A stretch of DNA of 64,000 nt from Bacillota bacterium (GTDB taxonomy: Bacteria > Bacillota > Bacilli > Alicyclobacillales > SLC66). A program made the position numbers and the translations under genes. The DNA lies in the NCBI GenBank assembly GCA_021793015.1, contig JAJYTO010000001.1, forward strand, positions 7,738 to 71,737, read 5' to 3'. The stretch's first letter is position 1; the number at the start of each line of letters is the position of its first letter. Below the pieces are notes generated by a model that saw nothing but the letters and a program-made list of their open reading frames with translations, was not told where the DNA came from and ran no database searches. Shown piece by piece: positions 3,778-63,787 of the stretch.

Positions 3778-4527
3778 CTATGTATCGTCATCCTGTCGCA
3801 ATTTACGCAGAGTCGTCCGTACGGTCTCCCCTGCATACCCCTTGCGATACAGATAACCAGCCACAAGTTCCCATCGCTTTTGATTCCGTTCCCTGTCGCT
3901 CCATGTGACAGCATCACGAGCGAGTTTCCTGTCAATCTCTGCAAGCTTACGACGACCGTCCTGAAAAGCCCCCGACGATTCGTCGTATCGACTGGCGCGA
4001 AGGGCCTGGCGCACCTGATCCGCCGAGATTCCGCGAGACAGCATGCGTTGGGCCAGGTCCCGCTTACTCCGCAGCGTTCCGCTGGAAAGCGTCTGTTCGA
4101 CATAACGTTCACTGAGCTCCATATCGTTCAGGAGACTCTGCTCCTTAAGCCAACGCACCACTTCCTCTGCCACCGAAGAATGGTACGAGTGTCTGATCAG
4201 ATGCCGCTTCACCTCGGTCTCCGTACGGGAGCGTCTAGCCAGATAGCCGAGGCTCAGTTCGCGCGCCTCAGACACTGTGTCCGCCCGCAAGAGTTCCTGG
4301 CGCACCGTTTCAGTAAACACCGTCCCGGCATGAATGTTCCGTTGCGACAAACTCATCGCGAGAAAAGGCCCGACGATCGTTCCGTCCGACAGATGCAGCA
4401 ACCGCCGCTGGGGATTTTCTGGATCGAGGTCCTGGCGCACAACCGTCAACTCGCCATGATCAGCCATCTCGACGATCACTCCATCCGAACACTCTGCCAC
4501 ACCCGCGTGACATGGCCTTGGGGACAT
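3778..4527 (-). CDS. recX: Recombination regulator RecX
   Basis: Repeated three-helix RecX-type segments (YLARRSRTETEVKRHL, LSRGISADQVRQAL, GYLYRKGYAGETV). Lies immediately downstream of recA. Start is uncertain: the ATG at 4527 lies inside the repeat terminus, and the ATG at 4467 (MADHGEL) is the alternative. Confidence 0.72.
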   Translation of the reverse strand: MSPRPCHAGVAECSDGVIVEMADHGELTVVRQDLDPENPQRRLLHLSDGTIVGPFLAMSLSQRNIHAGTVFTETVRQELLRADTVSEARELSLGYLARRSRTETEVKRHLIRHSYHSSVAEEVVRWLKEQSLLNDMELSERYVEQTLSSGTLRSKRDLAQRMLSRGISADQVRQALRASRYDESSGAFQDGRRKLAEIDRKLARDAVTWSDRERNQKRWELVAGYLYRKGYAGETVRTTLRKLRQDDDT

Positions 4528-4578
4528 GTGATGAACCCAATTTCGGCAGGCGCAGTGCGGACTTTATCACATGTCCCC
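4520..4578. mobile_element. MITE-like palindromic element, short (59-bp) copy 1
   Basis: GGGGACATGTGAT...ATCACATGTCCCC inverted termini. Aligns with both ends of the longer copies at 12793 and 40611, but the interior is deleted. Lies between the recA stop and recX. Confidence 0.6.
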
Positions 4579-4582
4579 TTGA

Positions 4583-5632
4583 TTACTCTTCAAACTCAAA
4601 GTCTTCATCATCTTCCGTTTGCTGTGGCGTGACCGCGACGCCAGGGGACATGATGCTTAACTCGCGGATCCTGGCGTCAATCTGGTCCGCCATGGCCGGA
4701 TGTTCCTTCAGAAACTGTTTGGCGTTTTCCTTGCCCTGACCCAGACGCTCATCTCCATACGAGTACCATGCACCGCTCTTTTGGATAATCTCAAGTTCCG
4801 TTCCAATGTCGACAATGCTCCCCACGCGAGAAATGCCTTCGCCAAACATGATATCCACTTCAACCTGCTTGAAGGGTGGGGCCACCTTATTTTTGACTAC
4901 CTTGATTTTTGTCCGATTGCCGACGAGGTCGTTGCCCTGTTTCAGGGACTCCCCCCTGCGAACCTCAAGCCTGATCGTGGAATAAAACTTGAGTGCGCGG
5001 CCCCCGGTCGTTGTCTCGGGATTGCCGAACATCACTCCGACTTTCTCGCGAATCTGATTGATGAAGATCGTAATGGTTCTTGATTTATTGATCGCGCCGC
5101 TGAGTTTACGGAGCGCTTGGGACATCAGTCGCGCATGCAGTCCCACATGGGAGTCGCCCATCTCCCCTTCGATCTCCGCTTTTGGCACGAGGGCGGCTAC
5201 GGAGTCGATCACGATAATCTCCACAGCGCCGCTGCGCACCAGCGCCTCCGCGATTTCAAGAGCCTGCTCTCCCGTGTCGGGTTGGGAAATGAGCATCTCA
5301 TCGATGTTGACCCCCAGATTCTGCGCATACAATGGATCGAGCGCATGCTCCGCGTCGATGAATGCGGCCTGCCCACCCTGTCGCTGCACCTCTGCAATCG
5401 CATGCAATGCAACCGTTGTCTTTCCGGAAGACTCCGGTCCGTAAATTTCAATAATCCTGCCCCTGGGCAACCCGCCGACGCCAAGCGCGATGTCAATCGC
5501 CAATGAGCCCGATGATATGGTCTCCACGTTCATCGTCGCGCTCGCCTCGCCAAGCCGCATGATCGAACCTTTGCCAAACTGCTTCTCAATCTGTTTCAGT
5601 GCCTGCTCTAATGCGCTCTTCCGATCCGCCAC
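4583..5632 (-). CDS. recA: Recombinase RecA
   Basis: [19 protein letters not shown] and Walker [10 protein letters not shown]. Start set at GTG 5632 ([10 protein letters not shown]) behind AGAGGGTGGG, giving 349 aa. The longer ORF start lies inside a repeat hairpin. Confidence 0.95.
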
Positions 5633-5681
5633 CCAGATTCCCACCCTCTGCGTTCGATTCAAGCCGATTGTTCGTACTGCG

Positions 5682-5942
5682 CTATCCCGAAAATACGGTG
5701 GTCCCTGCCTGTCAGGACGGATCATGCATGCCGCTGCCGCTCAGACAGCCGCGGCCTAAAGGCCGCTAATACTCGCTGCAGCGGCATGCATGATCCGTCC
5801 TGGCGAGAGTCCCCCGCTGTCGCTAAACTCGCGACGGGCGCAATATATGTCTCCTCCCCGAGCGGGCCTTGCGCCTGTGAAAAAACTACTCGGCACCTTT
5901 TTCATTCCCTGATGGTGCTGCGAAGCAGCATGAATCTCTATC
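5682..5942. repeat. Modular intergenic repeat cluster R1 (hp2 hairpin, 3' half of hp1, T unit)
   Basis: Shares long near-identical stretches with the clusters at 20046, 30204, 53531 and 63369. Contains a 25-bp perfect inverted repeat (5713-5737 / 5778-5802). Confidence 0.9.
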
Positions 5943-5945
5943 ATC

Positions 5946-5985
5946 ATTGTACTAGGTCGCGCTCCAAAACACAAACATTTGTTCG
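5946..5985 (-). promoter_or_regulatory. Candidate SOS-regulated promoter: LexA (Cheo) box overlapping the -35
   Basis: Minus strand reads CGAACAAATGTTTG (5972-5985), matching 13 of 14 positions of the Gram-positive LexA consensus CGAACRNRYGTTYC. It is followed by -35 TTGTGT (5969-5974), a 17-nt spacer and -10 TACAAT (5946-5951). Confidence 0.5.
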
Positions 5986-6033
5986 GACATGTGCGATCGT
6001 ACCAAGCCGGCGACGCAGCCCCGCAAAACGCAC

Positions 6034-6070
6034 AAAACCGCGGCATGCGCAGAAGCGCCGCCGCGGTTTT
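6034..6070. terminator. Bidirectional intrinsic terminator-like hairpin (end of the helicase transcription unit)
   Basis: AAAACCGCGGC, a 15-nt loop, then GCCGCGGTTTT. A GC stem is flanked by A and T runs on both strands. Lies between the helicase stop and the candidate recA promoter. Confidence 0.5.
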
Positions 6071-6240
6071 CGCCGCGAATTCGATCACAGATCACAGGCA
6101 CAGTCTGCCAGCGCACCAACCCCACCAACCGCCCCGCGTCCGGAGAAGCGTCGTTCCCGCCCCGGAGACGGCGCCGCGCCTCTTGCATTCTGCAACCGGA
6201 CGCGGACAACGAAGACAGACGGGAAGAGACGCTGCCCAGC

Positions 6241-6336
6241 GCATGCGGTCACGCATGTCGACACATGCGCGATCACACATGCGCTCGCATGACTAGTCAC
6301 GTGCGTGTCGACGCATGCGGTCACACGTATGGTCAG
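6241..6336. repeat. Degenerate ~12-bp periodic array (CATGCGnTCAC-like, ~8 units)
   Basis: Units are gcatgcggtcac, gcatgtcgacac, atgcgcgatcacac, atgcgctcgc, atgactagtcac, gtgcgtgtcgac, gcatgcggtcacac and gtatggtcag. Lies immediately 3' of the helicase stop. Confidence 0.6.
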
Positions 6337-7946
6337 TCTTGGCGTCCGCCGCCGTAGCGGCGCGAGGAACCTCCCATGCCACGCGGTTTCGCGGGTTCCA
6401 AATTGACCCGATAGCCGTTAACCCGCGCCTGGCGCAGCGCCTCAAACACGAACGGCGCGGACTCCTCCTCGACCTCGACGAACGTGAACTTCTCAAAAAT
6501 GTCGATCTTGCCGACTGCGGCGCTGGGGATTCCCGACTCTTCCGAAATCATCCGCACCATATCGCCAGGGCCCATCCGCGCGCTGCGGCCAATATTGACA
6601 AAGAAGCGAACCATACCCGGCGCTCCGCCGGTGTCTCCGAAATCGTACTGACCCGTTTCTTCCGATTCAAGCTCACCGGCGGAAGCGAGCTTCAACGCCG
6701 CAGCGGCGAGATCAATCGGATCAAGTTCATCCACCAATTTGCCAAGCAGCGCTCGATAGTGCCCCAGCCCGCCCTCCTGAACGGTGGACTGCAGACGATC
6801 GCGCCAAATCTCCGCCTGCCGCTCCGCAACATCCGCCAGCGACGGCACCTCACGCCCCTCAATGGACGCCTTTGTTTCACGCTGAATCGTCTTTAGCAGC
6901 TTGAATTCGCGAGGCGTGACGAGGGTGATCGCCAAACCGCGCTTGCCGGCCCGGCCCGTCCGTCCGACGCGATGGACATACGCTTCAGTGTCCTGTGGAA
7001 TGTCGTAGTTCACAACATGGGTCACGTTGCCGACATCAATGCCGCGAGCCGCCACGTCAGTCGCGACCAAAAGCTCGATCTCGCCGCCGCGGAATTTCTT
7101 CATCACACGATCACGCTGCGCCTGGCTCAGGTCTCCATGAAGGCCGTCCGCCAGATACCCCCGCGATATCAGCGCTTCCGCCAGCTCATCGACGCCCCGC
7201 TTGGTGCGGCAGAAGATGATGCCGAGCGTGACGTCCTCGCTGTCGATGACCCGACACATGCTGTCCAGTTTTGTGCGCTCAAGAACCTTGTAGAACACCT
7301 GGTCGATCTGAGGCACGGTCATCTCGCCATGCGTCATCTGAACGTGTTCCGGCGCCTTCATGTAGCGGTTTGCGAGGCGCCGCACTTCAGGAGGAATGGT
7401 GGCGGAGAACAGCAGTGTCTGCCGTTCTGCGGGAATCGTTTGCAGAATCGATTCGATGTCCTCAATAAAGCCCATGTCCAGCATCTCGTCTGCTTCGTCC
7501 AGCACGACCGTCTGCACTTTGTCAAGCTTGAGTGTTCCGCGGCGCAGGTGGTCGAGAACCCGTCCTGGGGTCCCGATGACGATGTTGACCCCCTGTTCCA
7601 GCGCGCGAATCTGATGACCAATGGACTGTCCGCCATAAATGGGCAGCGTCCGCACACGCTTAAATTTTGCGATCTTGCGCATTTCACCGGCAACCTGAAT
7701 AGCCAGTTCGCGCGTGGGCAACAGTACGATCGACTGGACGTGGCGACCGGTTCCCGCAATCTCCACAAGCGGAATGCCAAACGCGGCCGTCTTTCCGGTT
7801 CCTGTCTGGGCCTGTCCGATGACATCCTTACCGTCAAGAATCAGCGGAATACACGTACTCTGAATCGGAGACGGCTCCTCATAGCCCATCTCATTGATCG
7901 CTTCCTGCAGTTTCTTACTCAAAGCAAATTCTAAAAAAGTCGTCAT
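6333..7946 (-). CDS. DEAD-box ATP-dependent RNA helicase (CshA/DeaD-like) with C-terminal RNA-binding domain and RGG-like tail
   Basis: Q motif GYEEPSPIQ, AQTGTGKTAAF, VLDEADEMLD, SAT and HRVGRTGRAG. C-terminal DbpA-like segment, ending in GMGGSSRRYGGGRQD. Confidence 0.9.
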   Translation of the reverse strand: MTTFLEFALSKKLQEAINEMGYEEPSPIQSTCIPLILDGKDVIGQAQTGTGKTAAFGIPLVEIAGTGRHVQSIVLLPTRELAIQVAGEMRKIAKFKRVRTLPIYGGQSIGHQIRALEQGVNIVIGTPGRVLDHLRRGTLKLDKVQTVVLDEADEMLDMGFIEDIESILQTIPAERQTLLFSATIPPEVRRLANRYMKAPEHVQMTHGEMTVPQIDQVFYKVLERTKLDSMCRVIDSEDVTLGIIFCRTKRGVDELAEALISRGYLADGLHGDLSQAQRDRVMKKFRGGEIELLVATDVAARGIDVGNVTHVVNYDIPQDTEAYVHRVGRTGRAGKRGLAITLVTPREFKLLKTIQRETKASIEGREVPSLADVAERQAEIWRDRLQSTVQEGGLGHYRALLGKLVDELDPIDLAAAALKLASAGELESEETGQYDFGDTGGAPGMVRFFVNIGRSARMGPGDMVRMISEESGIPSAAVGKIDIFEKFTFVEVEEESAPFVFEALRQARVNGYRVNLEPAKPRGMGGSSRRYGGGRQD

Positions 7947-12800: not shown

Positions 12801-12988
12801 GTGATAAACCAGAGTTTCGGCAGGCGCACTGCGGTCCATGTAGTGTTTGACTAAAGCCTCAAACACTAGGTTTGACTAAAGCCTCAAACACTAGGTTTGA
12901 CTAAAGCCTCAAACACTAGGTTTGACTAAAGCCTCAAACACTATGTTGGATCATAGCGCCTGCTGTGCGGACTTTATCACATGTCCTC
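12793..12988. mobile_element. MITE-like palindromic element, copy 2 (196 bp, with internal tandem expansion)
   Basis: Termini are GGGGACATGTGATAAA and TTTATCACATGTCCTC, with subterminal GCAGGCGC / GCGCCTGC. The central hairpin is TAGTGTTTGA-ctaaagcc-TCAAACACTA. Collinear with the copy at 40611. Confidence 0.65.
12851..12950. repeat. 4 x 25-bp perfect or near-perfect tandem repeat inside MITE-like copy 2
   Basis: The unit ctaaagcctcaaacactaggtttga repeats at 12851, 12876, 12901 and 12926. The copy at 40611 carries a single unit. Confidence 0.9.
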
Positions 12989-13767
12989 TAGCGTTCCATG
13001 ATGTCATGTTCCAGCCCTTCATAAGTGATTTCCTCATCCGGGGTGTTGCGAAGTTCAATGACGCGATCAAACAGTTCCCAGGAAAATTCCGACCGTCGCA
13101 CAAAGATGTCAGGATGCTCGATGATCTTGGGAGCGTTCAGCCGGAGGATGCGGCGGACAAGACGCAGATGCTCCTCGCTGCCCCTCATTGTCGACACGAT
13201 GCCGTCAATGATATACACATGATCGCCCAGATCAAATTCATCATCGTCCAGGTCCGTGCGAAGCGTTTGTTTTAACAGCGTGGAGGAAATGAAGGTCCAG
13301 CGTTTTCCTGCATACACACTGGCTGCGACAAGGGACTCTGTCTTGCCGACTCGCGGCATGCCGCGAATGCCCATGATCTGATTGCCGGGTCGCTTCAGAT
13401 GTTCGCCGATGAAGTCGACAAGAAGACCCAAATCGTCGCGAGTGAATTTATATGTTTTGCAATGCCCAATCTCCGTCTCCCGTTCAATGAGGCGCCCGTG
13501 ACGGAGCGCCAGACGATCCAACAGCGTCGGCGGCCGCAACGCGGTCACCGTGATATTGTCCACCTGACGCAACATATCCTGCAGAGTGTCAATCCGCGCG
13601 GTGTCTTCCACTTGCAGCAAGAAGCCGCGCCTGCGATCTTCGACGCCGCTCAGCTTGACGATGTTGATCGACAGCATTCCCAGCACTGAAGCGATATCAC
13701 CCAATAGCCCAAACCGATCCTTATAGATATAATACTCGAAATACCACTCACCCATGTGATCAGCCAT
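12988..13767 (-). CDS. Conserved uncharacterised protein, YmfK-like (ACT-like N-terminus plus P-loop GMPRVGKT)
   Basis: N-terminal ACT-like segment (KDRFGLLGDIASVLGMLSINIVKLSG) and a Walker-A-like IRGMPRVGKTES. Sits directly upstream of rodZ, as ymfK does in B. subtilis. Start set at ATG 13767. Confidence 0.6.
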   Translation of the reverse strand: MADHMGEWYFEYYIYKDRFGLLGDIASVLGMLSINIVKLSGVEDRRRGFLLQVEDTARIDTLQDMLRQVDNITVTALRPPTLLDRLALRHGRLIERETEIGHCKTYKFTRDDLGLLVDFIGEHLKRPGNQIMGIRGMPRVGKTESLVAASVYAGKRWTFISSTLLKQTLRTDLDDDEFDLGDHVYIIDGIVSTMRGSEEHLRLVRRILRLNAPKIIEHPDIFVRRSEFSWELFDRVIELRNTPDEEITYEGLEHDIMER

Positions 13768-13798: not shown

Positions 13799-13880
13799 TC
13801 TAACACCCCTATCCCAGAAAATCGCCGCAGGCGCATTTTCTTCCCGATTTTTGGTGGCGCGTCAGCGCCATGAAAGTCTA
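13799..13880. repeat. Modular intergenic repeat cluster R2 (single A unit)
   Basis: ctatcccagaaaatcgccgcaggcgcattttcttcccgatttttggtggcgcgtcagcgccatgaaagtctatcc is near-identical to the A units at 20046 and 63369. Confidence 0.9.
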
Positions 13881-13899
13881 TCCTGTGAAATCGAGTTGG

Positions 13900-19991: not shown

Positions 19992-20045
19992 GGTTGCGTC
20001 ACTCCCACATATGTCTCGCTGGTAGTATGTCGCAACCATGGGGGG

Positions 20046-20445
20046 CTATCCCGGAAAATCGCCGCAGGCGCATTTTCGACCCGGTTGTTGGTGGCGCGCA
20101 AGCGCCATGAATGTCTATCCCGGAAAATTGATGGTCCCTGCCGGTCGGAGTCGTATATTGCGCCCCTGCTCAGACACCGCTGTCGCTAAACTCGCGACGG
20201 GCGCAATATACGACTCCTCCCTGAGCAGGCCTTGCATTCGTGAAGAACACTGCCGACGCCTTTTTCATTCACTGATGGCGGCGCGCAACGGCATGCATGA
20301 TCCGTCCTGGCGGAAGCCCAGCGCTGTCGCTAAACTCGCGACGGGTGCAATACAGGACCCGTCCCCGAGCAGGCCTTGCATTCGCGAAAAAACTTTGCGG
20401 CGCCTTTTTCATCATGATGTTTGTGGCGGGCCTTGCATGGGTCTA
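20046..20445. repeat. Modular intergenic repeat cluster R3 (A unit, full hp1, T unit, 3' half of hp2, hp1 fragment, T unit)
   Basis: A unit at 20046-20120. The hp1 stem is GGAGTCGTATATTGCGCCC (20147-20165) paired with GGGCGCAATATACGACTCC (20199-20217). Other parts are collinear with R1, R4 and R6. Confidence 0.9.
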
Positions 20446-30157: not shown

Positions 30158-30188
30158 AAAGAAGGCCGGCGCTTCGCCGCCCTTCTTT
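30158..30188 (-). terminator. Intrinsic terminator closing the pnp transcription unit
   Basis: Minus strand reads AAAGAAGGGCGGCG-aag-CGCCGGCCTTCTTT followed by GGTTG. A long GC-rich stem with one mismatch. Confidence 0.6.
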
Positions 30189-30203
30189 ATCCTGGCCTCT
30201 GTC

Positions 30204-30482
30204 GTGAAAATACGGTGGCCCGTGCCGGTCGGAGTCATATATTGCGCCCCTGCTCAGACAGCGCTTCGCACAACTCGCGACGGTCGCAATATATGACTCC
30301 TCCCTGAGCGGGCTTTACGTCCGTGAAGAACGCTGTCGACGCCATTTTCATCCTGCTGATGGTGGCGCGTCAGCGCCATGACGGGCTGTCCCGGAAAATC
30401 GCCGCAGGCGCATTTTCGACTCGGTTGTTGGTGCTGCGCAAGTGAGATTTTGCTTCACAAAACTCAGGCATGACAGTCTATC
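30204..30482. repeat. Modular intergenic repeat cluster R4 (hp1, T unit, A unit with H insert)
   Basis: The hp1 stem is GGAGTCATATATTGCG (30231-30246) paired with CGCAATATATGACTCC (30285-30300). The A unit carries the insert gtgagattttgcttcacaaaactcag. Confidence 0.9.
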
Positions 30483-30557
30483 AAGAAGGAGTACAAGCTG
30501 AAACTGTTCCCGGTTACGCCGGGAGATCGTATATACCGCATCGCGTCCCGATGATCG

Positions 30558-36792: not shown

Positions 36793-39700
36793 CTACTCGG
36801 CTTTAATGGCCTCCATCTTAAACGCTTCAACGATGTCGCCTTCCTTGATGTCATTGAACCGTTCAAGCGTAAACCCACATTCATACCCGAAGGACACTTC
36901 ACGCGCGTCATCCTTGAAACGCTTCAGAGAATCCAGCTTCCCTTCATACACGACCACCCCGCCGCGGATGACCCGAACATCGGCGTCACGGACCAATTTG
37001 CCGTCCTGCACCATGCCGCCGGCAATCGTTCCGACTTTCGACACCTTGAACAACTGCCGAACTTCCGCGCGGCCCAGCACAACTTCCTTGTAGACGGGAT
37101 CGAGCATGCCTCGCAGCGCAGCCTCAATCTCTTCGATCAGGTTGTAGATCACGCGATAGAGGCGGATGTCCACCTTCTCAGACTCTCCCATTTTGACCGC
37201 GTTTACTTCCGGGCGCACGTTGAATCCGATCACGATGGCGTTCGACGCAGAGGCGAGCAAAATGTCGGACTCCGTAATGGCCCCCACGCCATTGTGGATG
37301 ACGCGGATGCGCACACCGCTCACTTCGATTTTCTGCAGGGCTCCGAGCACCGCTTCCGCGGAGCCGTGAACATCCGCCTTCAGGATGAGATTGAGGTCCT
37401 TGACCTCACCCTCCTGAATCTGCTTATACAGATCATCGAGCGTGACGCGGGAGGTCACCCCGAGTTCTTCCGCGCGCTGGCGCATCGAACGGCGTTCCGC
37501 CACGAGGCGCCCCTGGCGTTCGTCGTCATACACCACAAACAGATCGCCGGCGCTTGGCACATCGGACAGACCCACGATCTCGACCGGCATGGACGGCTGC
37601 GCCTCCTTCACCCGCCGCCCACGGTCATTCACCATGGCCCGCACCTTGCCAAACGTGTGGCCCGCAACCACCACATCGCCGATGCGCAGGGTGCCGTTTT
37701 GAACGAGGATGGTCGCAACCGGGCCCCGCCCCTTATCCAACTGGGCCTCGACAACCGTTCCCCGCGCACGCATCGACAGACTGGCTTTCAGATCCGCCAC
37801 CTCCGCCACAAGCAGGATCATCTCCAACAATTCTTCGATCCCCTGCTTCTGCAGTGCAGACAGCGGCACGAAGATCGTATCGCCGCCCCACTCCTCCGCA
37901 ACGAGGCCGTGTTCGGTCAGCGCCTGCTTGATGCGATCCGGATCCGCTCCCGGTTTGTCCATCTTGTTGATGGCCACGATAATCGGCACGTTTGCCGCTT
38001 TGGCGTGGTTGATCGCCTCCACGGTTTGCGGCATCACTCCATCATCCGCGGCAACCACGAGAACTGTGATATCAGTGACCTGTGCGCCGCGCGCACGCAT
38101 CGTGGTGAATGCGGCGTGACCGGGAGTATCGAGAAACGTGATTCTCTTCTGGTTGATCTCGACCTGATAGGCGCCGATGTGCTGCGTGATGCCGCCCGCT
38201 TCGGAGGCCGTCACATTGGTCTGACGAATGGCGTCAAGCAGCGTGGTCTTGCCGTGATCGACGTGCCCCATGATCGTTACCACGGGCGGTCTGTGTTCAA
38301 GAGTCGCCTCGTCGATGTCTTCCGGAAGCATCTCCTCCGCTTCGAGATCGCGCGGCGCGTCCACGATAACCTCGGTGCCAAACTCCGCCCCCACCAACGC
38401 CATCGCGTCGGTGTCGAGCTCCTGGTTGATCGTCACCGGCATGCCGAGAAACAACAGTTTTTTAATAACCTCTGACGCCTCGCGACGAATATAATGGGCA
38501 AACTCGCTGACCGTCATAGGAGCGTCGACATGAACCTGTTTCGGGCCTTCAGGCGCCCTGACCACCATGGTCCGCCCCTGCGAGCGCGAGCGTGGAGGTT
38601 GCAGCTTGCGGTTATTCTCACGCCTGTCAGACAGATTCGAACGGTTGTTGCCTCCTCGGTCTCCGCCGCGTCTGCGCTGCTGGCCCTGGCCTCCCGTTTG
38701 CCCGCTGCGCGCCGCGTCGGACGAAGTCTCAAAACGCGGCGGCGCACTGGAAAATCCACCTCCTGATTCTCCAGAATAACGCGCAGGCCGCGATCCTCCT
38801 TGCGGTCCACGTCTGTTATCCCCGGAACGCGCCGGTGCAGCGCCGCCATACGAACCCGTCTGGGCAGATCGAGCCCCGCCGCCCTGATAGCCGCCCCGCG
38901 GTCCGCCCGCACCGCCTGCCGATTGCGGACGGCCACCTGCCGACGGCGGACGGCCACCTGCCGACGGCGGACGGCCTCCCGTCGATTGCGGACGGCCACC
39001 TGCCGATTGCGGACGGCCACCTGCCGATTGCGGACGGCCACCTGCCGATTGCGGACGATTTCCGTCGCCCGCTCCCTGTCCCGGACGGCGATCGTACCCG
39101 GCGGACGCAGGCCGCTGATTGTATCCACCACCCTGACTCGTCCGATTTGGCGCTCCCTGGCGCGGCGGATACTGTCCGGGGCGGCGATCCGCTCCGCCCG
39201 CGGCGCCTTCATACGGCCGCGGCGAGCGCTCTGCGCCGTCTCCGGTTGACCGTTCAGAATATCCGCCGCGAGCGTGGGCGCCCTGCGCCGTTCTGTCCCC
39301 CTCCGGCGAACCAGGCGCGCGTTCCCGAAATGGACGATCGTTGCGCCCGCCCTGATTGGTCGCGCCCTCCGACCGATAGCCGCCTCCATATGACCGCCGC
39401 TGATGCGTGGAGCCTGTGCGCGCCGAGTACGGTTGCGATGGTCGCGCACCCGTGATCTGCGCGGCGGCGTCATCGGCGTTTGCGGCGCCGCGCGCGCCCG
39501 GAACCGCCGCGGGCGGCGCCCATTCTGCGTCCTGGGCCGGCGGCGTTCTCCGCTCCGGCGCTTGTTCCGACGGTCCGCGCGTTTCCGTCTGCGTTGCATT
39601 GCCCTCTGTCGTATGCCCCGTAATAGTTCCCTCTCCCTCGCTTACACTCGCTGTCCGCGCGACTGTCCGGCGGTCCGGGTCGCGCTCCTGCTTGCGCTCC

Positions 39701-39894
39701 TGCATGGCCGCGGTACGCGCGGCCGCGCGGGCCTTCACATCAGAAAAGAAGCCCTCCACCGCCTGCACCATATGCGGTTCCATCACACTCATGTGATTAT
39801 TCACCGGAATGCTCAATCGGCTCAGTATTGTAATGATTTCCTTGCTCGACATATTGAGTTGCTTGGCGTACTCATACACACGCAATTTGGTCAA
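36793..39894 (-). CDS. infB: Translation initiation factor IF-2 with a greatly expanded low-complexity N-terminal region
   Basis: [22 protein letters not shown]-terminus and G domain [21 protein letters not shown]. 1033 aa, with a long Gly/Arg/Pro/Ser/Gln-rich stretch. TTG start overlaps the ylxQ stop. Confidence 0.95.
38916..39062. repeat. 7 x 21-bp in-frame tandem repeat within infB (encodes GGRPQSA heptads)
   Basis: ctgccgattgcggacggccac-like units run back to back. The protein reads [51 protein letters not shown]. Confidence 0.9.
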
Positions 39895-40479: not shown

Positions 40480-40610
40480 GGCCCATCCCCCCACGTGGAA
40501 ATCCAAACCAGTCTGTAATCTCCCGTATCCGCGTCTCCATGAACCCGGGTGTTCAGGAAACGCCGACGGTTCGCAGACGCCGGCCATGCTGGCCCAGTCA
40601 TGTTGGCCTA

Positions 40611-40732
40611 GGGGACATGTGATAAACTGAAATTTGGCAGGCGTGGCGCGGTACATATAGTGTTTGATTAAAGCCTCAAACACTATATGTGGGATCATAA
40701 CGCCTGCTGCGCGGACTTTATCACATGTCCTC
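40611..40732. mobile_element. MITE-like palindromic element, copy 3 (122 bp)
   Basis: GGGGACATGTGATAAA...TTTATCACATGTCCTC termini. The inner hairpin is ATATAGTGTTTGA-ttaaagcc-TCAAACACTATAT. Flanked by TA on both sides. Its last base is the first base of the nusA stop codon. Confidence 0.65.
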
Positions 40733-41817
40733 TAGTCATCCAGAAACGCGGCGCGGTCAAGATCCGCGAACACGGAGGATGTCCGTCCCATCTGGCTCTC
40801 GCTCTTGATGTCGATCTTCCAGCCTGTCAATTTGGCGGCCAGACGGGCATTTTGCCCCTCTTTGCCGATGGCGAGCGACAATTGGTAGTCAGGCACCACC
40901 ACCCGCGCCATTTTCTCGCCCTCAAACACCTCCACATCGACTACCTTCGCAGGCGATAGAGCGCTCGCCACGTAAATGGCGGGATCGTTGCTCCACTCGA
41001 TGACATCGATTTTTTCGCCCTGCAACTCGGCCACGATCGACTGAATTCGCATGCCCCTCGGCCCCACGCAGGCGCCGATCGGATCCACATCGTGGTTTCG
41101 TGAAAATACGGCAACCTTGGACCTTGCTCCGGCCTCGCGCGCCACCGCCTTGACCTCGACGATCCCGTCATAAATCTCCGGCACCTCAAGTTCCAGCAGG
41201 CGGCGCAACAGTCCCGGGTGAATGCGCGACAGGAGGATCTGCGGTCCCTTTGTCGTCTTTTCCACGCGCAAAATGAAGGCGCGGATGCGATCACCCAACT
41301 GCAGGCGTTCACCGGGGATCTGTTCGGACAGCGGCAGCAGACCCTCGGTCCGTTCCAGATCCACATATGAATAACGCCCGTCCTGTCGCGCGACCACACC
41401 CGACACGATGTCCTCTTCCAGATCCGCGTAGGCTGTGTAGATGATGCCGCGCTCCGCTTCCCTGATGCGCTGCGTCACAACCTGTTTGGCCGTCTGGGCC
41501 GCGATGCGGCCAAATTCTCGCGGCGTAACCTCAAGTTCCACGATGTCGCCCAGGCGATAGTTTGGATTCATTTCCATGGCGGCGTCCAGCGACAACTCCA
41601 GACGCGGATCGTGCGGACTCTCCACCACGGTCTTGCGGGCGTACACAAGAATGTTTCCCGACAGTCTGTCGACTTCGACGCGAACATTTTGCGCGGAACT
41701 GAAATTCCGCTTGTACGCCGAGATGAGCGCCGCCTCAATCGCCTCGATCAGCACACCGCTGCTGATGCCGCGCTCCCGTTCGAGTTGGTCCAGCGCTTCG
41801 ATAAAGTCCGCATTCAT
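40732..41817 (-). CDS. nusA: Transcription termination/antitermination factor NusA
   Basis: N-terminal domain [19 protein letters not shown], an S1 domain and two KH domains ([34 protein letters not shown]). Start set at ATG 41817. Confidence 0.93.
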
Positions 41818-53385: not shown

Positions 53386-53530
53386 GTTCAGTCCGCTCCT
53401 TATGCTGCTTGTATGTACCCAATCGGCCGCCACGGCAGCGGCATCGCCGTCGTTTCAAAAATATGGTGCAGGCAAGGCGACCGCCGCTTGACTCCACCGC
53501 GCTATGCCCACCCTGCGTCTTTGAGTCAAT

Positions 53531-53880
53531 CTGCCGCGAAATATCGCCGCAGGCGTATTTTTCTTCCCGGTTGTTGGTGGCGCGAAGCGCTGAGATTTTG
53601 CTTCGCAAAACTCAGGCATGAAAGTCTATCCCGAAACCAACATGGCCTGACGGCCACCGCCAACCATGGCAACATCCCAGACGCGCTTGGCAAGTTGCCG
53701 TATAAAAATAACGATGGTCCCTGCCGGTCGGGATCATATACTGTGCCGCCGCTTGAACATGTCTGCGCCAAACTCGCGACGGGCACAGTATACGACCCCG
53801 GGCGAGCGGGCTTTCATCCCCTGAAAAACGGCGCTGGCGCTTTTTCAGGGAATGGCGCCGCGCAGCGCCATGGGGGGTCT
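53531..53880. repeat. Modular intergenic repeat cluster R5 (A unit with H insert, unique spacer, divergent hp1, T-like unit)
   Basis: The A unit with the H hairpin CTGAGaTTTTGC-ttc-GCAAAACTCAG is at ~53531-53635. The hp1 variant is at 53731-53797. The T-like unit has CCCTGAAAAA...TTTTTCAGGG and ATGGCGC...GCGCCAT stems. Confidence 0.85.
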
Positions 53881-53964
53881 GCTCCGAACATGCGGCGGCC
53901 CTTGCGGGCCAGCATGCCGACTCTTTCAGGCTCTTTCAGGCTCGTCAAGGTTTTACCGGATCTT

Positions 53965-58987: not shown

Positions 58988-59848
58988 CTATGTGGTGAAT
59001 CGGCGCAACAGAGCACCGATGCCATGGCGAACGTTTGGCTGGAGAGGTTGATCGCAGAGCGCGTTCTTTGCGATCTGCACCACACACCGGGTGGCGAGCG
59101 AGTGCGGTTCAGACAGCACAAACGGATGCTGTTTTGCCACGGCCCGCTGCACAGCGGCGTCCTCCAGCAGGTAGCCAAGCAATTCCATGTCTAGCCGCAA
59201 GAACTGCCGGACAACGAATTGCAGTTTGCGACTGGCGTCCATTCCGGCCGTCACGCTGTCAGTCCTGTTCACCAACAGCCGCGTTCGCGGCGTCCCCCCA
59301 GACTGCAGCACCAATTTCAGCAGCGTATACGCGTCGGCCAGCGCGGTGGGTTCAGGGGTCGTCACCAGCAACAGCTCGTCGCAAAGGCCAATGAGTTCCG
59401 CCGTATGCCTTCCAAACCCCGCTCCGAAATCAATGAAAATGCGATCGAATTGTCCGGAGATTTCCGCCAGTTGTTCGACCAGCCGTCTCAGTTGCCAGTC
59501 TGATTGGTTCTCCAGAAGCGTTTCGCCGCCGCCCGATACAAACGATATGCCCCGCGGCCCTTCGGTCAGGGCGTCCGCCAACTCTATCCTGTTGTCCATA
59601 ACGTCCTGCAGACCATACTTCGGGCACAATCCCAGCAGGATGTCGAGGTTGGAGAATCCAAGATCACCGTCGATAATCGCGATTGAGTTCCCGTAATCAG
59701 CTAAAGCCAGAGCCAAATTCAGCACGATGTTGGATTTGCCGACGCCTCCCTTGCCGCTGGCGACGGCGACAAGTCTTGCAGCCCCCGCGCCCCTATCGCG
59801 AGTCGATGCTTTCACCAACTGCCGCAAAGGTTCAGCCTGATCGGGCAT
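58988..59848 (-). CDS. flhG: Flagellar number regulator FlhG (MinD/ParA-type ATPase, YlxH)
   Basis: Deviant Walker A VASGKGGVGKSN and a MinD-like core. Start set at ATG 59848, overlapping the flhF end. Confidence 0.88.
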   Translation of the reverse strand: MPDQAEPLRQLVKASTRDRGAGAARLVAVASGKGGVGKSNIVLNLALALADYGNSIAIIDGDLGFSNLDILLGLCPKYGLQDVMDNRIELADALTEGPRGISFVSGGGETLLENQSDWQLRRLVEQLAEISGQFDRIFIDFGAGFGRHTAELIGLCDELLLVTTPEPTALADAYTLLKLVLQSGGTPRTRLLVNRTDSVTAGMDASRKLQFVVRQFLRLDMELLGYLLEDAAVQRAVAKQHPFVLSEPHSLATRCVVQIAKNALCDQPLQPNVRHGIGALLRRFTT

Positions 59849-61316
59849 GCCGTTCACCTCCCGTGAAGCATGAGGAGAGAAAATCGGAATCAACGACCAT
59901 GATGTCGTCAGGCACGCGCTGACCTGTTGTCAGATACGACAATGGTTTTTGCAACGTGTGTGCGGCAGCCAGACAGAGGGTTGGCAGAACCGTCTCGTCG
60001 AGCTTTGTGAACAGCAGGGCGTCGTAGCCGACGGAGGCGAGCACTTCAGCGACCTCCTTTGCTTCCAGCCAACGTGACGACAGGCTGAGCACCAGGTATC
60101 TGAGATCGATGGATATACCCCCCAACAGCGTGTCGATCTCCTGCGCATGTGAGTGATCAAGAAATGCCCTGCCCGTTGTGTCCACAAATACGAGATCGAG
60201 CTTCGACATGCTGTGCAGGCGTTCCTCCACTTCCGCAGCCGACCGGGCCACAGCAAGCGGTATACTTAGAATGTCTGCGTACGTCTTGAGTTGCTGCACA
60301 GCCGCCATGCGAAATGTGTCCACGGTCAGCAATCCCACCGATCGCCCGTCGCGCAGCTTCGCCTGGGCGGCCAATTTGGCGATCGTCGTGGTCTTGCCCA
60401 CTCCGGTGGGACCAAAGAACGCCACAACTCGGTCACTGCCGCCAATCGTTCTGACAGGTCCCGTTTCTTGCAGCAGAGTCCGGGAAAACCGAGTCAGCGC
60501 GGCATCCACCGCCCTAGGGTCGCGAATATCCGAGTGCGCCGCCTCGGTCATGAGAAAACGCTCCAGAAGCGGAGCAGGCAACTGCGCGTGCATGAGTCGT
60601 TCGACTACGCGCCCCAACGCCGTGCGATCCAGACCAGGAAGGCCGCCCGGCCCAATCAGCGCAGTGAGCAGGCTGCGGAGATCGCGCAGTTCACGCTCCA
60701 CCGCGACGGCGCCAGCGCCCGTTGCACCCGCCGCCAGACCGTCGCCGCTGACCGCGTATCCCGCGCTGGACGCATGGCCGACGACGACCCGCTTCCCCTT
60801 GGCATCCGCTGGCGCGTGTCCGGCTGTGGGGGCGCGTTCCGGGTGAAGCGCCGCAGCTCGTCCGCCTGCCGGCGCGCTTTCCCGGTGAACCGCCGCAGCT
60901 CGTCCGCCTGCCGGCGCGCTTTCCCGGTGAACCGCCGCAGCTCGTCCGCCTGCTGGCGCGCTTTCCGGGTGAAGCGCCGCAGCTCGTCCGCCTGCCGGCG
61001 CGCTTTCCCGGTGAACCGCCGCAGCTCGTCCGCCTGCCGGCGCGCTTTCCCGGTGAAGCGCCGGAAATCGTGGATCCGGTCCGAGCGACGCCTGAAAACC
61101 CGGTGATGCGCCCAGGGCGTTCACGGGCGCTTCTCTGGCGTAATCGTCATACTCGCGCCCCGCCACGACTTCGTATACCTTCACTCCGAACAGTCCAGAC
61201 CAGCCAACGGCCCGAATTTTCCGCTTTGACAGAATAACCGCCTCAGATCCCAATTCCGCCTTGATGACAGTGAGCACCTGAGGCAAGGACTTGGCGACGT
61301 AACGCTTGATAAACAC
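59832..61316 (-). CDS. flhF: Flagellar biosynthesis SRP-type GTPase FlhF with a repeat-expanded B domain
   Basis: N-terminal MFIKRYVAKSLPQVLTVIK and an NG domain with FFGPTGVGKTTT and DTTGR. The internal 14-aa repeat HRESAPAGGRAAAV occurs ~5 times. Confidence 0.9.
   Translation of the reverse strand: MFIKRYVAKSLPQVLTVIKAELGSEAVILSKRKIRAVGWSGLFGVKVYEVVAGREYDDYAREAPVNALGASPGFQASLGPDPRFPALHRESAPAGGRAAAVHRESAPAGGRAAALHPESAPAGGRAAAVHRESAPAGGRAAAVHRESAPAGGRAAALHPERAPTAGHAPADAKGKRVVVGHASSAGYAVSGDGLAAGATGAGAVAVERELRDLRSLLTALIGPGGLPGLDRTALGRVVERLMHAQLPAPLLERFLMTEAAHSDIRDPRAVDAALTRFSRTLLQETGPVRTIGGSDRVVAFFGPTGVGKTTTIAKLAAQAKLRDGRSVGLLTVDTFRMAAVQQLKTYADILSIPLAVARSAAEVEERLHSMSKLDLVFVDTTGRAFLDHSHAQEIDTLLGGISIDLRYLVLSLSSRWLEAKEVAEVLASVGYDALLFTKLDETVLPTLCLAAAHTLQKPLSYLTTGQRVPDDIMVVDSDFLSSCFTGGERHARSG
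60842..61065. repeat. ~5.3 x 42-bp in-frame tandem repeat inside flhF
   Basis: ggtgaa(g/c)cgccgcagctcgtccgcctgccggcgcgctttccc units run head to tail with only a few substitutions. Confidence 0.9.
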
Positions 61317-63352: not shown

Positions 63353-63368
63353 AACGCGGCCTGACCTC

Positions 63369-63787
63369 CTATCCCGAAATATCGCCGCAGGCGTATATTT
63401 TTCCCAGTTGTTGGTGGCGCGTGAGCGCCATGAAGTCTATCCCCGAAAATCGCCGCAGGCGCATTTTCTTCCCGGTTGTTGGTGGCGCAAAGCGCCATGA
63501 AGTCTATCCCGAAAATACGGTGGTCCCTGCCTGCCAGGACGGATCATGCATGCCGCTGCCGCTCAGACAGCCGCGGCCCAAGGGCCGCTAATACTCGCTG
63601 CAGCGGCATGCATGATCCGTCCTGGCGGGAGTCCAGCGCTGTCGCTAAACTCGCGACGGGCGCAATATATGACTCCTCCCTGAGCGAGCTTTACGGCCGT
63701 GTAAAACTTCGCGACGTCTTTTCATCCTGCTGACGATGCCGCGCAGCGGTGAGATTTTGCTTCCCAAAACTCAGGCATGGCCGTCTA
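63369..63787. repeat. Modular intergenic repeat cluster R6 (two tandem A units, hp2, 3' half of hp1, T unit with H insert)
   Basis: A units at ~63369-63442 and ~63436-63509 are joined by gtctatcccc-gaaaat. The hp2 25-bp perfect stem is 63535-63559 / 63600-63624. Collinear with R1. Confidence 0.9.

Follow-up and report, generated by a model that had tools for sequence, protein, structure and literature searches.

A hairpin repeat inserted between a predicted LexA-controlled promoter and recA in a Bacillota bacterium

How does the SOS response reach recA when a block of repetitive DNA separates the gene from the SOS promoter predicted for it? This question is raised by a 64,000-nucleotide stretch of DNA from a Bacillota bacterium (the whole of which is called the window here), in which a 700-nt gap on the minus strand has a DEAD-box/DbpA helicase gene on one side and recA on the other. 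The original prediction placed a LexA (Cheo) box and an overlapping promoter about 315 nt upstream of the recA GTG, with a repeat cluster filling nearly all of the intervening sequence. An SOS-induced recA mRNA would thus begin with a long, structured leader; alternatively, the repeat might have uncoupled recA from LexA. The features on which our evaluation of these possibilities depends are collected in Table 1.

Table 1. Features of the recA region by window coordinate, followed by predicted recA leader lengths in the family
Feature	Position or length	Strand	Basis or remark
recA, 349 aa, GTG start at 5632	4583-5632	minus	N-terminus aligns with RecA homologs
SD GAGGGTGGG	5640-5648	minus	within displaced proximal leader
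Displaced ancestral proximal leader, CGCAGTACGAACAATCGGCTTGAATCGAAC...	5633-5681	minus	aligns with L087 and L090 post-promoter sequence and with L097 recA-proximal leader
Inserted 256-nt composite unit, AGATTCATGC...ATTTTCGGGATAG on gene strand	5682-5937	minus	absent at orthologous site in L090 and L098-L102
Long hairpin, arms 5713-5740 and 5775-5802, 34-nt loop	5713-5802	minus	repeated at 63530-63629 and in L083
Promoter-proximal 6-bp hairpin TGCTGC-TTC-GCAGCA, the family's left-end hairpin on gene strand	5916-5930	minus	folding and copy comparison
GATAG pentamer, insertion target; predicted start A5939	5938-5942	minus	empty sites carry a single (G/A)ATAG; start from sigma-A spacing
-10 hexamer TACAAT	5946-5951	minus	relaxed scan; invariant in 9/9 orthologous recA promoters compared
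-35 hexamer TTGTGT	5969-5974	minus	relaxed scan; position kept in relatives
Predicted LexA operator (Cheo box) CGAACAAATGTTTG	5972-5985	minus	sole strict-consensus match in window
Terminator-like hairpin and T-run, CCGCGGC...GCCGCGG TTTTGTGCGTTTTG	6024-6066	minus	scan match 6052-6038, stem extended by reading
DEAD-box/DbpA helicase gene	6333-7946	minus	Pfam
recA leader, L098-L102	~33 nt		empty
recA leader, JA6.bin5	~36 nt		empty
recA leader, A. pomorum	~107 nt		
recA leader, F. organovorans	~119 nt		
recA leader, JA1.bin52	~203 nt		156-nt insert between 21-nt direct repeats (L087 3199-3375)
recA leader, S. ferrooxidans	~292 nt		155-nt element, 23-nt terminal inverted repeats (L104 1284-1438)
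recA leader, window	~307 nt		256-nt repeat unit

The gene order on the minus strand is cinA, helicase gene, recA, recX, rny, and ymdB, and the order from cinA through rny is as in relatives. Almost every gene of the window is carried on this strand, and the plus strand has a negative GC skew over the whole window; thus, the genes are co-oriented with replication. An identical RecA protein is encoded by ENA contig L085 and by the MAG GCA_027421465.1 (L086), and, among named genera, RecA is closest to that of Sulfoacidibacillus (91% identity), followed by Ferroacidibacillus (85%) and Alicyclobacillus (about 80%). The terminator-like hairpin separates the helicase gene from the recA promoter and lies upstream of the Cheo box. 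Directly 3' of the helicase stop (6240-6335), CGCATGCGGTCAC-type motifs recur at a distance of 72 nt amid a series of GCATGCG/CGCATGTG motifs. In both JA1.bin52 and JA6.bin5, an ECF sigma factor gene and a small zinc-finger-like ORF are found between the helicase gene and recA.

The repeat has a consequence for annotation. In one public assembly, RecA (call P0002) is a protein of 380 aa that starts at an ATG at 5725, inside the 3' arm of the long hairpin. We regard this start as a mis-call; the 31-residue extension (5725 to 5633) has no counterpart in relatives. The large ORFs on the plus strand of the window, those of the 5786-6292 type included, returned nothing from Pfam and are shadows of minus-strand genes.

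The predicted positions of the box, the -35, the 17-nt spacer, and the -10 all agree with an exact coordinate look-up; the recA GTG lies 313 nt beyond the end of the -10, and the Cheo box shares 3 nt with the -35 (5972-5974). As a motif match alone, the box is weak. A loose Cheo pattern (CGAACN4GTTCG, one mismatch) was found four times in the 64-kb window against an expectation of 4.06. The strict consensus, CGAACRNRYGTTYG, has a single match, at the recA box, against 0.13 expected, and 12 of 100 shuffled windows held at least one. The significance of the box therefore derives from its position and its conservation. CGAAC half-sites at 5652-5681 were also considered as a second LexA box and were rejected, having no GTTC partner at 4-nt spacing. 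A generic promoter scanner called nothing in the region, passing over the recA promoter because its -35 matches the consensus at only three of six positions. A relaxed scan (at least 8 of 12 matches, gene strand, 5600-6100) returned this site, TTGTGT-17-TACAAT, and no other.

Conservation was assessed at orthologous recA loci, fetched via RecX, via the 21-mer spanning the box and -35, and via RecA homologs. The box, -35, and -10 are identical to those of the window in JA1.bin52 (L087/L103), in JA6.bin5 (L090), in a relative with 94% RecA identity (L098), and in four assemblies of a relative with 93% identity (L099-L102). In S. ferrooxidans (L104), F. organovorans (L106), and A. pomorum (L001), the box takes the form CGAACAnAyGTTTG and TACAAT is retained. 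The distance from box to TACAAT is 19-20 nt in nine orthologous recA promoters, out to Alicyclobacillus pomorum, and across the family the spacer and flanks diverge while the box, -35, and -10 stay. In the close relatives, a conserved upstream block (TACGAT.G.A.ATGTC-CGAACAAATGTTTG-TGTTTT) and a conserved downstream block (CTAGTACAAT-(G/A)AT(G/A)ATAG) are separated by a diverged spacer. Because this layout is kept across the family, the promoter assignment rests on a phylogenetic footprint, beyond consensus matching. Further, the predicted operator has the traits of a LexA/Cheo box: it matches the consensus, overlaps the core promoter of an SOS gene, and is conserved in orthologs.

The control of recA by LexA (DinR) in B. 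subtilis and clostridia employs a GAAC-N4-GTT(C/T) operator in the promoter region (PMC4234289), a feature shared here, and the likeness extends to the overlap of operator and core promoter, the placement of recX after recA, and the retention of the cinA neighborhood. Unlike in those organisms, the operator-promoter here is 313 nt from the start codon, and a DEAD-box helicase gene intervenes between cinA and recA. The box/-35 21-mer also precedes addB-like and parE/gyrB-like genes in other Firmicutes; scans of JGI metagenomes gave no match to it and none to the recA 5' end. In Aquibacillus albus, the identical 21-mer (L089 2911-2931) lies about 50 nt upstream of a TnpB-like (IS605 OrfB-type) ORF, which suggests SOS control of a transposon-associated gene in that organism.

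What, then, is the material between promoter and gene? Three close lineages, with RecA proteins 93-96% identical to that of the window, lack it, and their start codons are only 39-42 nt from the -10. Downstream of the -10, L090 has aatGATAGtcgaatccagtatggacaaccttgcagaaggtgggaatgtgtGTG (about 42 nt in total) and L098-L102 have gatGATAGtataatttgcttgtagaaggtgggaatgtgtGTG (39 nt). In the window, the -10 is followed by GATGATAG, then by 256 nt (5937 down to 5682) ending in ...TTTTCGGGATAG, and then by CGCAGTACGAACAATCGGCTTGAATCGAACGCAGAGGGTGGGAATCTGGGTG, the homolog of the sequence found directly 3' of the promoter in JA1.bin52 and JA6.bin5. The unit adjoins GATAG on its 3' side, and its own end is GGGATAG. 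In L097 (RecA 99% identical), the same junction is filled by a variant unit of the same family, GGGGTAG being followed by TGCAG...; the junction common to the window and L097 is thus GGG(A/G)TAG, then (C/T)GCAG. The L097 contig ends inside the unit, short of the promoter. By these comparisons, the 256-nt unit is a mobile insertion between an intact recA promoter and its gene.

A start of transcription under sigma-A is placed at the seventh base after the -10. With +1 accordingly predicted at A5939, the insertion junction would fall at +2/+3, and the predicted leader is about 307 nt at the filled site of the window as opposed to 33-36 nt at the empty ones. The comparison with relatives lacking the insertion, which had been proposed as a check, has thus found the empty sites (L090 and L098-L102) and upholds the prediction of a long, structured leader created by an inserted repeat. 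The gap is indeed mostly repeat, and the predicted 25-bp-stem hairpin is present with 25 contiguous pairs. The term "cluster" was correct as to the repetitive nature of the DNA and needs refinement in detail: at recA there is one composite unit, belonging to a head-to-tail family with a GATAG target.

Repeats invite the suspicion that promoter and gene were united by a mis-join in assembly, and the assemblies L086 and L108 do break inside the repeat, so that the contigs of both end there; their recA-side junction is the same as that of the window. Over 7 kb, L085, a second assembly of the species, shows four mismatches to the window and a single 9-nt gap, yet spans the entire recA leader with a sequence identical to that of the window. 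The gene order from cinA to rny and the place of the promoter are also the same in relatives. Given two non-identical assemblies with an identical leader, we consider a mis-join excluded for practical purposes.

The same comparisons bear on whether 5682-5942 might be a conserved, single-copy regulatory leader of recA, akin to a riboswitch or sRNA, a finding that would have overturned the original prediction. The leader is highly structured, as such a reading would have it: a 340-nt leader sequence folds at -149.5 kcal/mol, against -122.9 +/- 5.5 for shuffled sequences (z = -4.8). However, the unit is multi-copy in the window and absent from orthologous leaders, and the empty sites refute this reading, to which we assign practically no likelihood. 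A search of the whole window against Rfam returned no family at its gathering score. A permissive search of 5550-6400 gave isrG (24 bits, where the gathering score is 100) and two families of miRNA precursors; these sub-threshold matches are hairpin-driven, and we judged them to be due to chance.

The recA unit has many relations in the window. Positions 5682-5884 are 93% identical to 63504-63706, its closest relative, and parts of the unit recur at 20141-20412, 30207-30471, 53537-53800, and 13809-13894. These sequences belong to a family, termed CTATCCC here after the unit start, with five other clusters in the window in the same orientation as the recA unit. The clusters extend over 63353-63784, 53434-53964, 30160-30557, 20040-20442, and 13837-13899. 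They occupy gaps between co-directional genes, including flhB-flhA, rpsB-tsf, pnp to a polysaccharide deacetylase gene, and RNase J to a ClpP-like gene, as well as a gap beside a DUF3388 gene. The flhB-flhA gap is filled in its entirety (63353-63784) by CTATCCC units, the closest homolog of the recA unit among them. All eight CTATCCC unit starts are on the plus strand, none being on the minus strand, and all lie inside clusters. On the gene strand this start reads GGGATAG; only the L097 copy differs (GGGGTAG). At the other end, also on the plus strand, units terminate in ...CATGAA(A)GT, after which the next CTATC begins. Short units (59-69 nt) have two small hairpins, and long units (150-290 nt) have a 19-bp or 28-bp hairpin. 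The arms of the hairpins vary in concert: TGGCGC/GCGCCA in some copies corresponds to TGCTGC/GCAGCA in others, amounting to two compensatory changes across copies, and the c53 copy of the 19-bp arm likewise carries paired substitutions.

The CTATCCC family is also found in JA1.bin52 and JA6.bin5; the latter (L083) has a near-identical long-hairpin unit, yet its recA site is empty. A 59-nt unit adjoining GATAG is present in L100 and L101 (around 1745-1830), upstream of the helicase-gene terminator hairpin, and is absent from L099 and L102. In L100, this minimal unit reads GATAG, ACATCCA[TGCTGC TTC GCAGCA]...[GAAAATTCGCC TGC GGCGATTTTTC]GGGATAG. Its presence or absence among assemblies with the same RecA protein indicates that the family has been recently mobile.

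Other repeats occur in the window. A second dispersed family, with GGGGACATGTGAT(A/G)AA...GTCCGCA ends, is represented at 4513-4580, 12807-12998, and 40604-40742. One of its copies directly follows the recA stop codon, between recA and recX, and the copy at 12845-12969 encloses four to five tandem 25-nt palindromic units, GTTTGACTAAAGCCTCAAACACTAG. In-frame tandem repeats with a 21-nt period (38891-39078) are found in a minus-strand ORF of 1033 aa (36793-39894), and others with a 42-nt period (60764-61099) in the minus-strand ORF 59832-61316.

To which class of mobile DNA might the CTATCCC units belong? The IS200/IS605 elements offer several likenesses. They have subterminal hairpins at both ends, as do the CTATCCC units, whose end hairpins differ from one another and which have no terminal inverted repeats. 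Their insertion point lies 3' of a short, constant sequence with which the element itself also ends, a behavior that the GATAG pattern resembles. They are found in one orientation, with the top strand on the lagging-strand template, and the CTATCCC units are alike in the one replichore segment sampled: because the plus-strand GC skew is negative throughout, the gene strand, on which GATAG comes first, is the lagging-strand template. A difference is that the fixed sequence of the CTATCCC units is a pentamer that is identical at both ends. The recA and L100 sites are filled directly after GATAG, and in arrays CTATC then follows; the empty/filled pairs are not base-perfect, and the GATAG pattern could instead reflect a strictly preferred target that is duplicated over 5 bp. 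Neither the window nor the fetched loci of the clade revealed a Y1 transposase, and a tblastn search with an approximate IS200 TnpA query returned only an unrelated Selenomonas locus. Nonetheless, the pentamer at both ends, the differing end hairpins, the head-to-tail arrays, and the single orientation match, as sequence features, mobility of the IS200/IS605 or REP-RAYT type, for which a single-strand mechanism has been described (PMC6006769).

The units share with REP/BIME sequences their extragenic location, their hairpins, their high density in mosaic clusters, and a short conserved tag beside the hairpins. In REP elements, however, the tag, located at the base of a palindrome of 20-40 nt, is GT[AG]G or CGTC (PMC3733652, PMC6006769), as opposed to CTATC/GATAG here. 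Further, BIMEs alternate in orientation (PMC2817692), whereas the CTATCCC units, of 59-290 nt and with two or more different hairpins, run head to tail. Membership of REP/BIME was rejected on both the tag and the orientation, eight of eight starts being CTATCCC on the plus strand. The Correia (CREE/NEMIS) elements of Neisseria are similar in being small, non-autonomous repeats located between promoters and genes, with long hairpins and co-transcription (predicted here). RNase III can bind the hairpins of CREE or cut them, and expression of the neighboring gene is thereby altered (PMC2649163). CREE are bounded by terminal inverted repeats, duplicate a TA target, and contain IHF sites, whereas the CTATCCC units lack terminal inverted repeats, adjoin GATAG, and run in one direction. 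Assignment to the MITEs with terminal inverted repeats was likewise rejected, since the two ends of the unit (AGATTCATGC... and ...TTTTCGGGATAG) do not form inverted repeats and the flanking pentamer is constant at every locus. The CTATCCC repeats are probably an undescribed family of GATAG-targeting hairpin repeats. With its fixed target and strict orientation, the family is a candidate for a new family of non-autonomous, single-strand transposons.

We now return to the consequences of the insertion for recA. One possibility, the alternative raised in the original prediction, is that the insertion uncoupled recA from LexA, with an unrecognized promoter within the element or at its recA-proximal end rendering the SOS promoter irrelevant. 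There is precedent for outward promoters created by repeat elements, Correia being an example (PMC2649163), and in the recA copy the foot of the hairpin carries a -35-like CTGACA, whereas the 63.5-kb copy reads CTGGCA there. However, the sole -10-like hexamer after CTGACA, TATTTT, is 14 nt off, which is too close. The relaxed scan of the leader (5946-5632, gene strand, spacers of 16-18 nt), using a consensus that may not fit an uncultured, GC-rich lineage, returned no second promoter-like site of at least 8/12 and no extended -10. Loose and strict pattern searches found no complete LexA box between the recA promoter and the GTG, in agreement with the original failure to see a convincing promoter or complete box between repeat and gene. 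Uncoupling is thus disfavored, and we consider it improbable.

Our preferred reading is that recA is probably still LexA-controlled and transcribed through the inserted element. By this account, which draws on the sequence comparisons above, recA would retain its ancestral, LexA-repressed sigma-A promoter, with the Cheo box over the -35 and TACAAT as the -10, and a non-autonomous 256-nt unit would have entered directly 3' of GATAG, at the predicted +2/+3. Upon DNA damage, LexA would be cleaved and transcription would begin at about 5939. It would then proceed through the element, and the leader of the recA mRNA would measure about 307 nt in place of the ancestral 33-36 nt.

Would transcription in fact pass the element? 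In both B. subtilis and E. coli, flhB is co-transcribed with flhA, and rpsB with tsf. Here, the gaps within both gene pairs are filled by units oriented like the one at recA, which indicates that the units generally permit read-through, and by analogy read-through of the recA unit is plausible. The contrary view is that the element is an attenuator, in which the long hairpin, or an A/U-rich stem followed by a U-run (5878-5904), stops or pauses most transcripts and damps the induction of RecA. The leader is indeed very stable (z = -4.8) and contains a stem with 28-nt arms, and an association of REP-type repeats with termination and with the stability of mRNA has been described (PMC3733652). A terminator scan, on the other hand, found no terminator-like site in the recA leader on the gene strand, where no GC-rich stem is followed by a T-run; the U-run at 5878-5884 comes after an all-A/U stem. 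Further, strong termination would come at a cost between flhB and flhA and between rpsB and tsf, yet near-identical units reside there, and the insertion has been kept in at least two strains. Attenuation is thus unlikely, if somewhat less so than uncoupling.

If the element is transcribed as the preferred reading holds, its long duplex would be the most probable site of post-transcriptional action. The 28-nt arms of the long hairpin are 96% complementary, with 25 contiguous perfect pairs, and its 34-nt loop contains a small GCGGCC/GGCCGC hairpin (5751-5766). A duplex of 28 bp is a textbook substrate of RNase III. By analogy with the Correia elements (PMC2649163), the long hairpin is a probable RNase III target, and its cleavage would be the likeliest functional outcome of the insertion; a cut within it would give a processed recA mRNA that starts in or after the hairpin. 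The level of RecA may also be affected. An effect on translation through the accessibility of the SD is not supported by modeling. The minimum-free-energy structure does pair the SD with a CCACC motif of the element (5696-5705). However, the unpaired probabilities of the SD are similar in the long leader (0.17-0.34) and the short ancestral one (0.18-0.6), and the CCACC motif varies among copies independently of recA. Sequestration of the SD was rejected on these grounds.

An important question is whether such a leader is exceptional. The predicted leaders of Table 1 span a wide range, and the short recA leader has evidently been expanded several times independently. Since long recA leaders are not unusual in the family, that of the window is less surprising. 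Among the papers covered by a literature search, none connects miniature inverted-repeat elements with the promoter of recA or with an SOS box. Small mobile repeats that change the fate of an mRNA from within its 5' UTR are nonetheless well known (PMC2229807, PMC10969869); the recA insertion is an example of this phenomenon, not a new kind of regulation. A bolder proposal would combine an undescribed, single-strand-transposed GATAG family (IS200/IS605- or RAYT-like, and hosted by an uncultured lineage related to the Alicyclobacillaceae), a short recA leader that has GATAG at +1 and serves as a recurrent landing site, and an RNase III-dependent layer of the SOS response; we hold this to be conceivable but doubtful. 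Three different expansions of the recA leader occur in sister lineages, namely those of the window, of JA1.bin52 (156 nt), and of S. ferrooxidans (155 nt).

The locus thus presents a master SOS gene that tolerates a structured, mobile insert of 256 nt at its predicted transcription start while its operator is left untouched. The empty (33-36 nt) and filled (307 nt) alleles of close relatives constitute a natural pair for the study of how a long leader with a duplex affects the kinetics, stability, or translation of an SOS mRNA.
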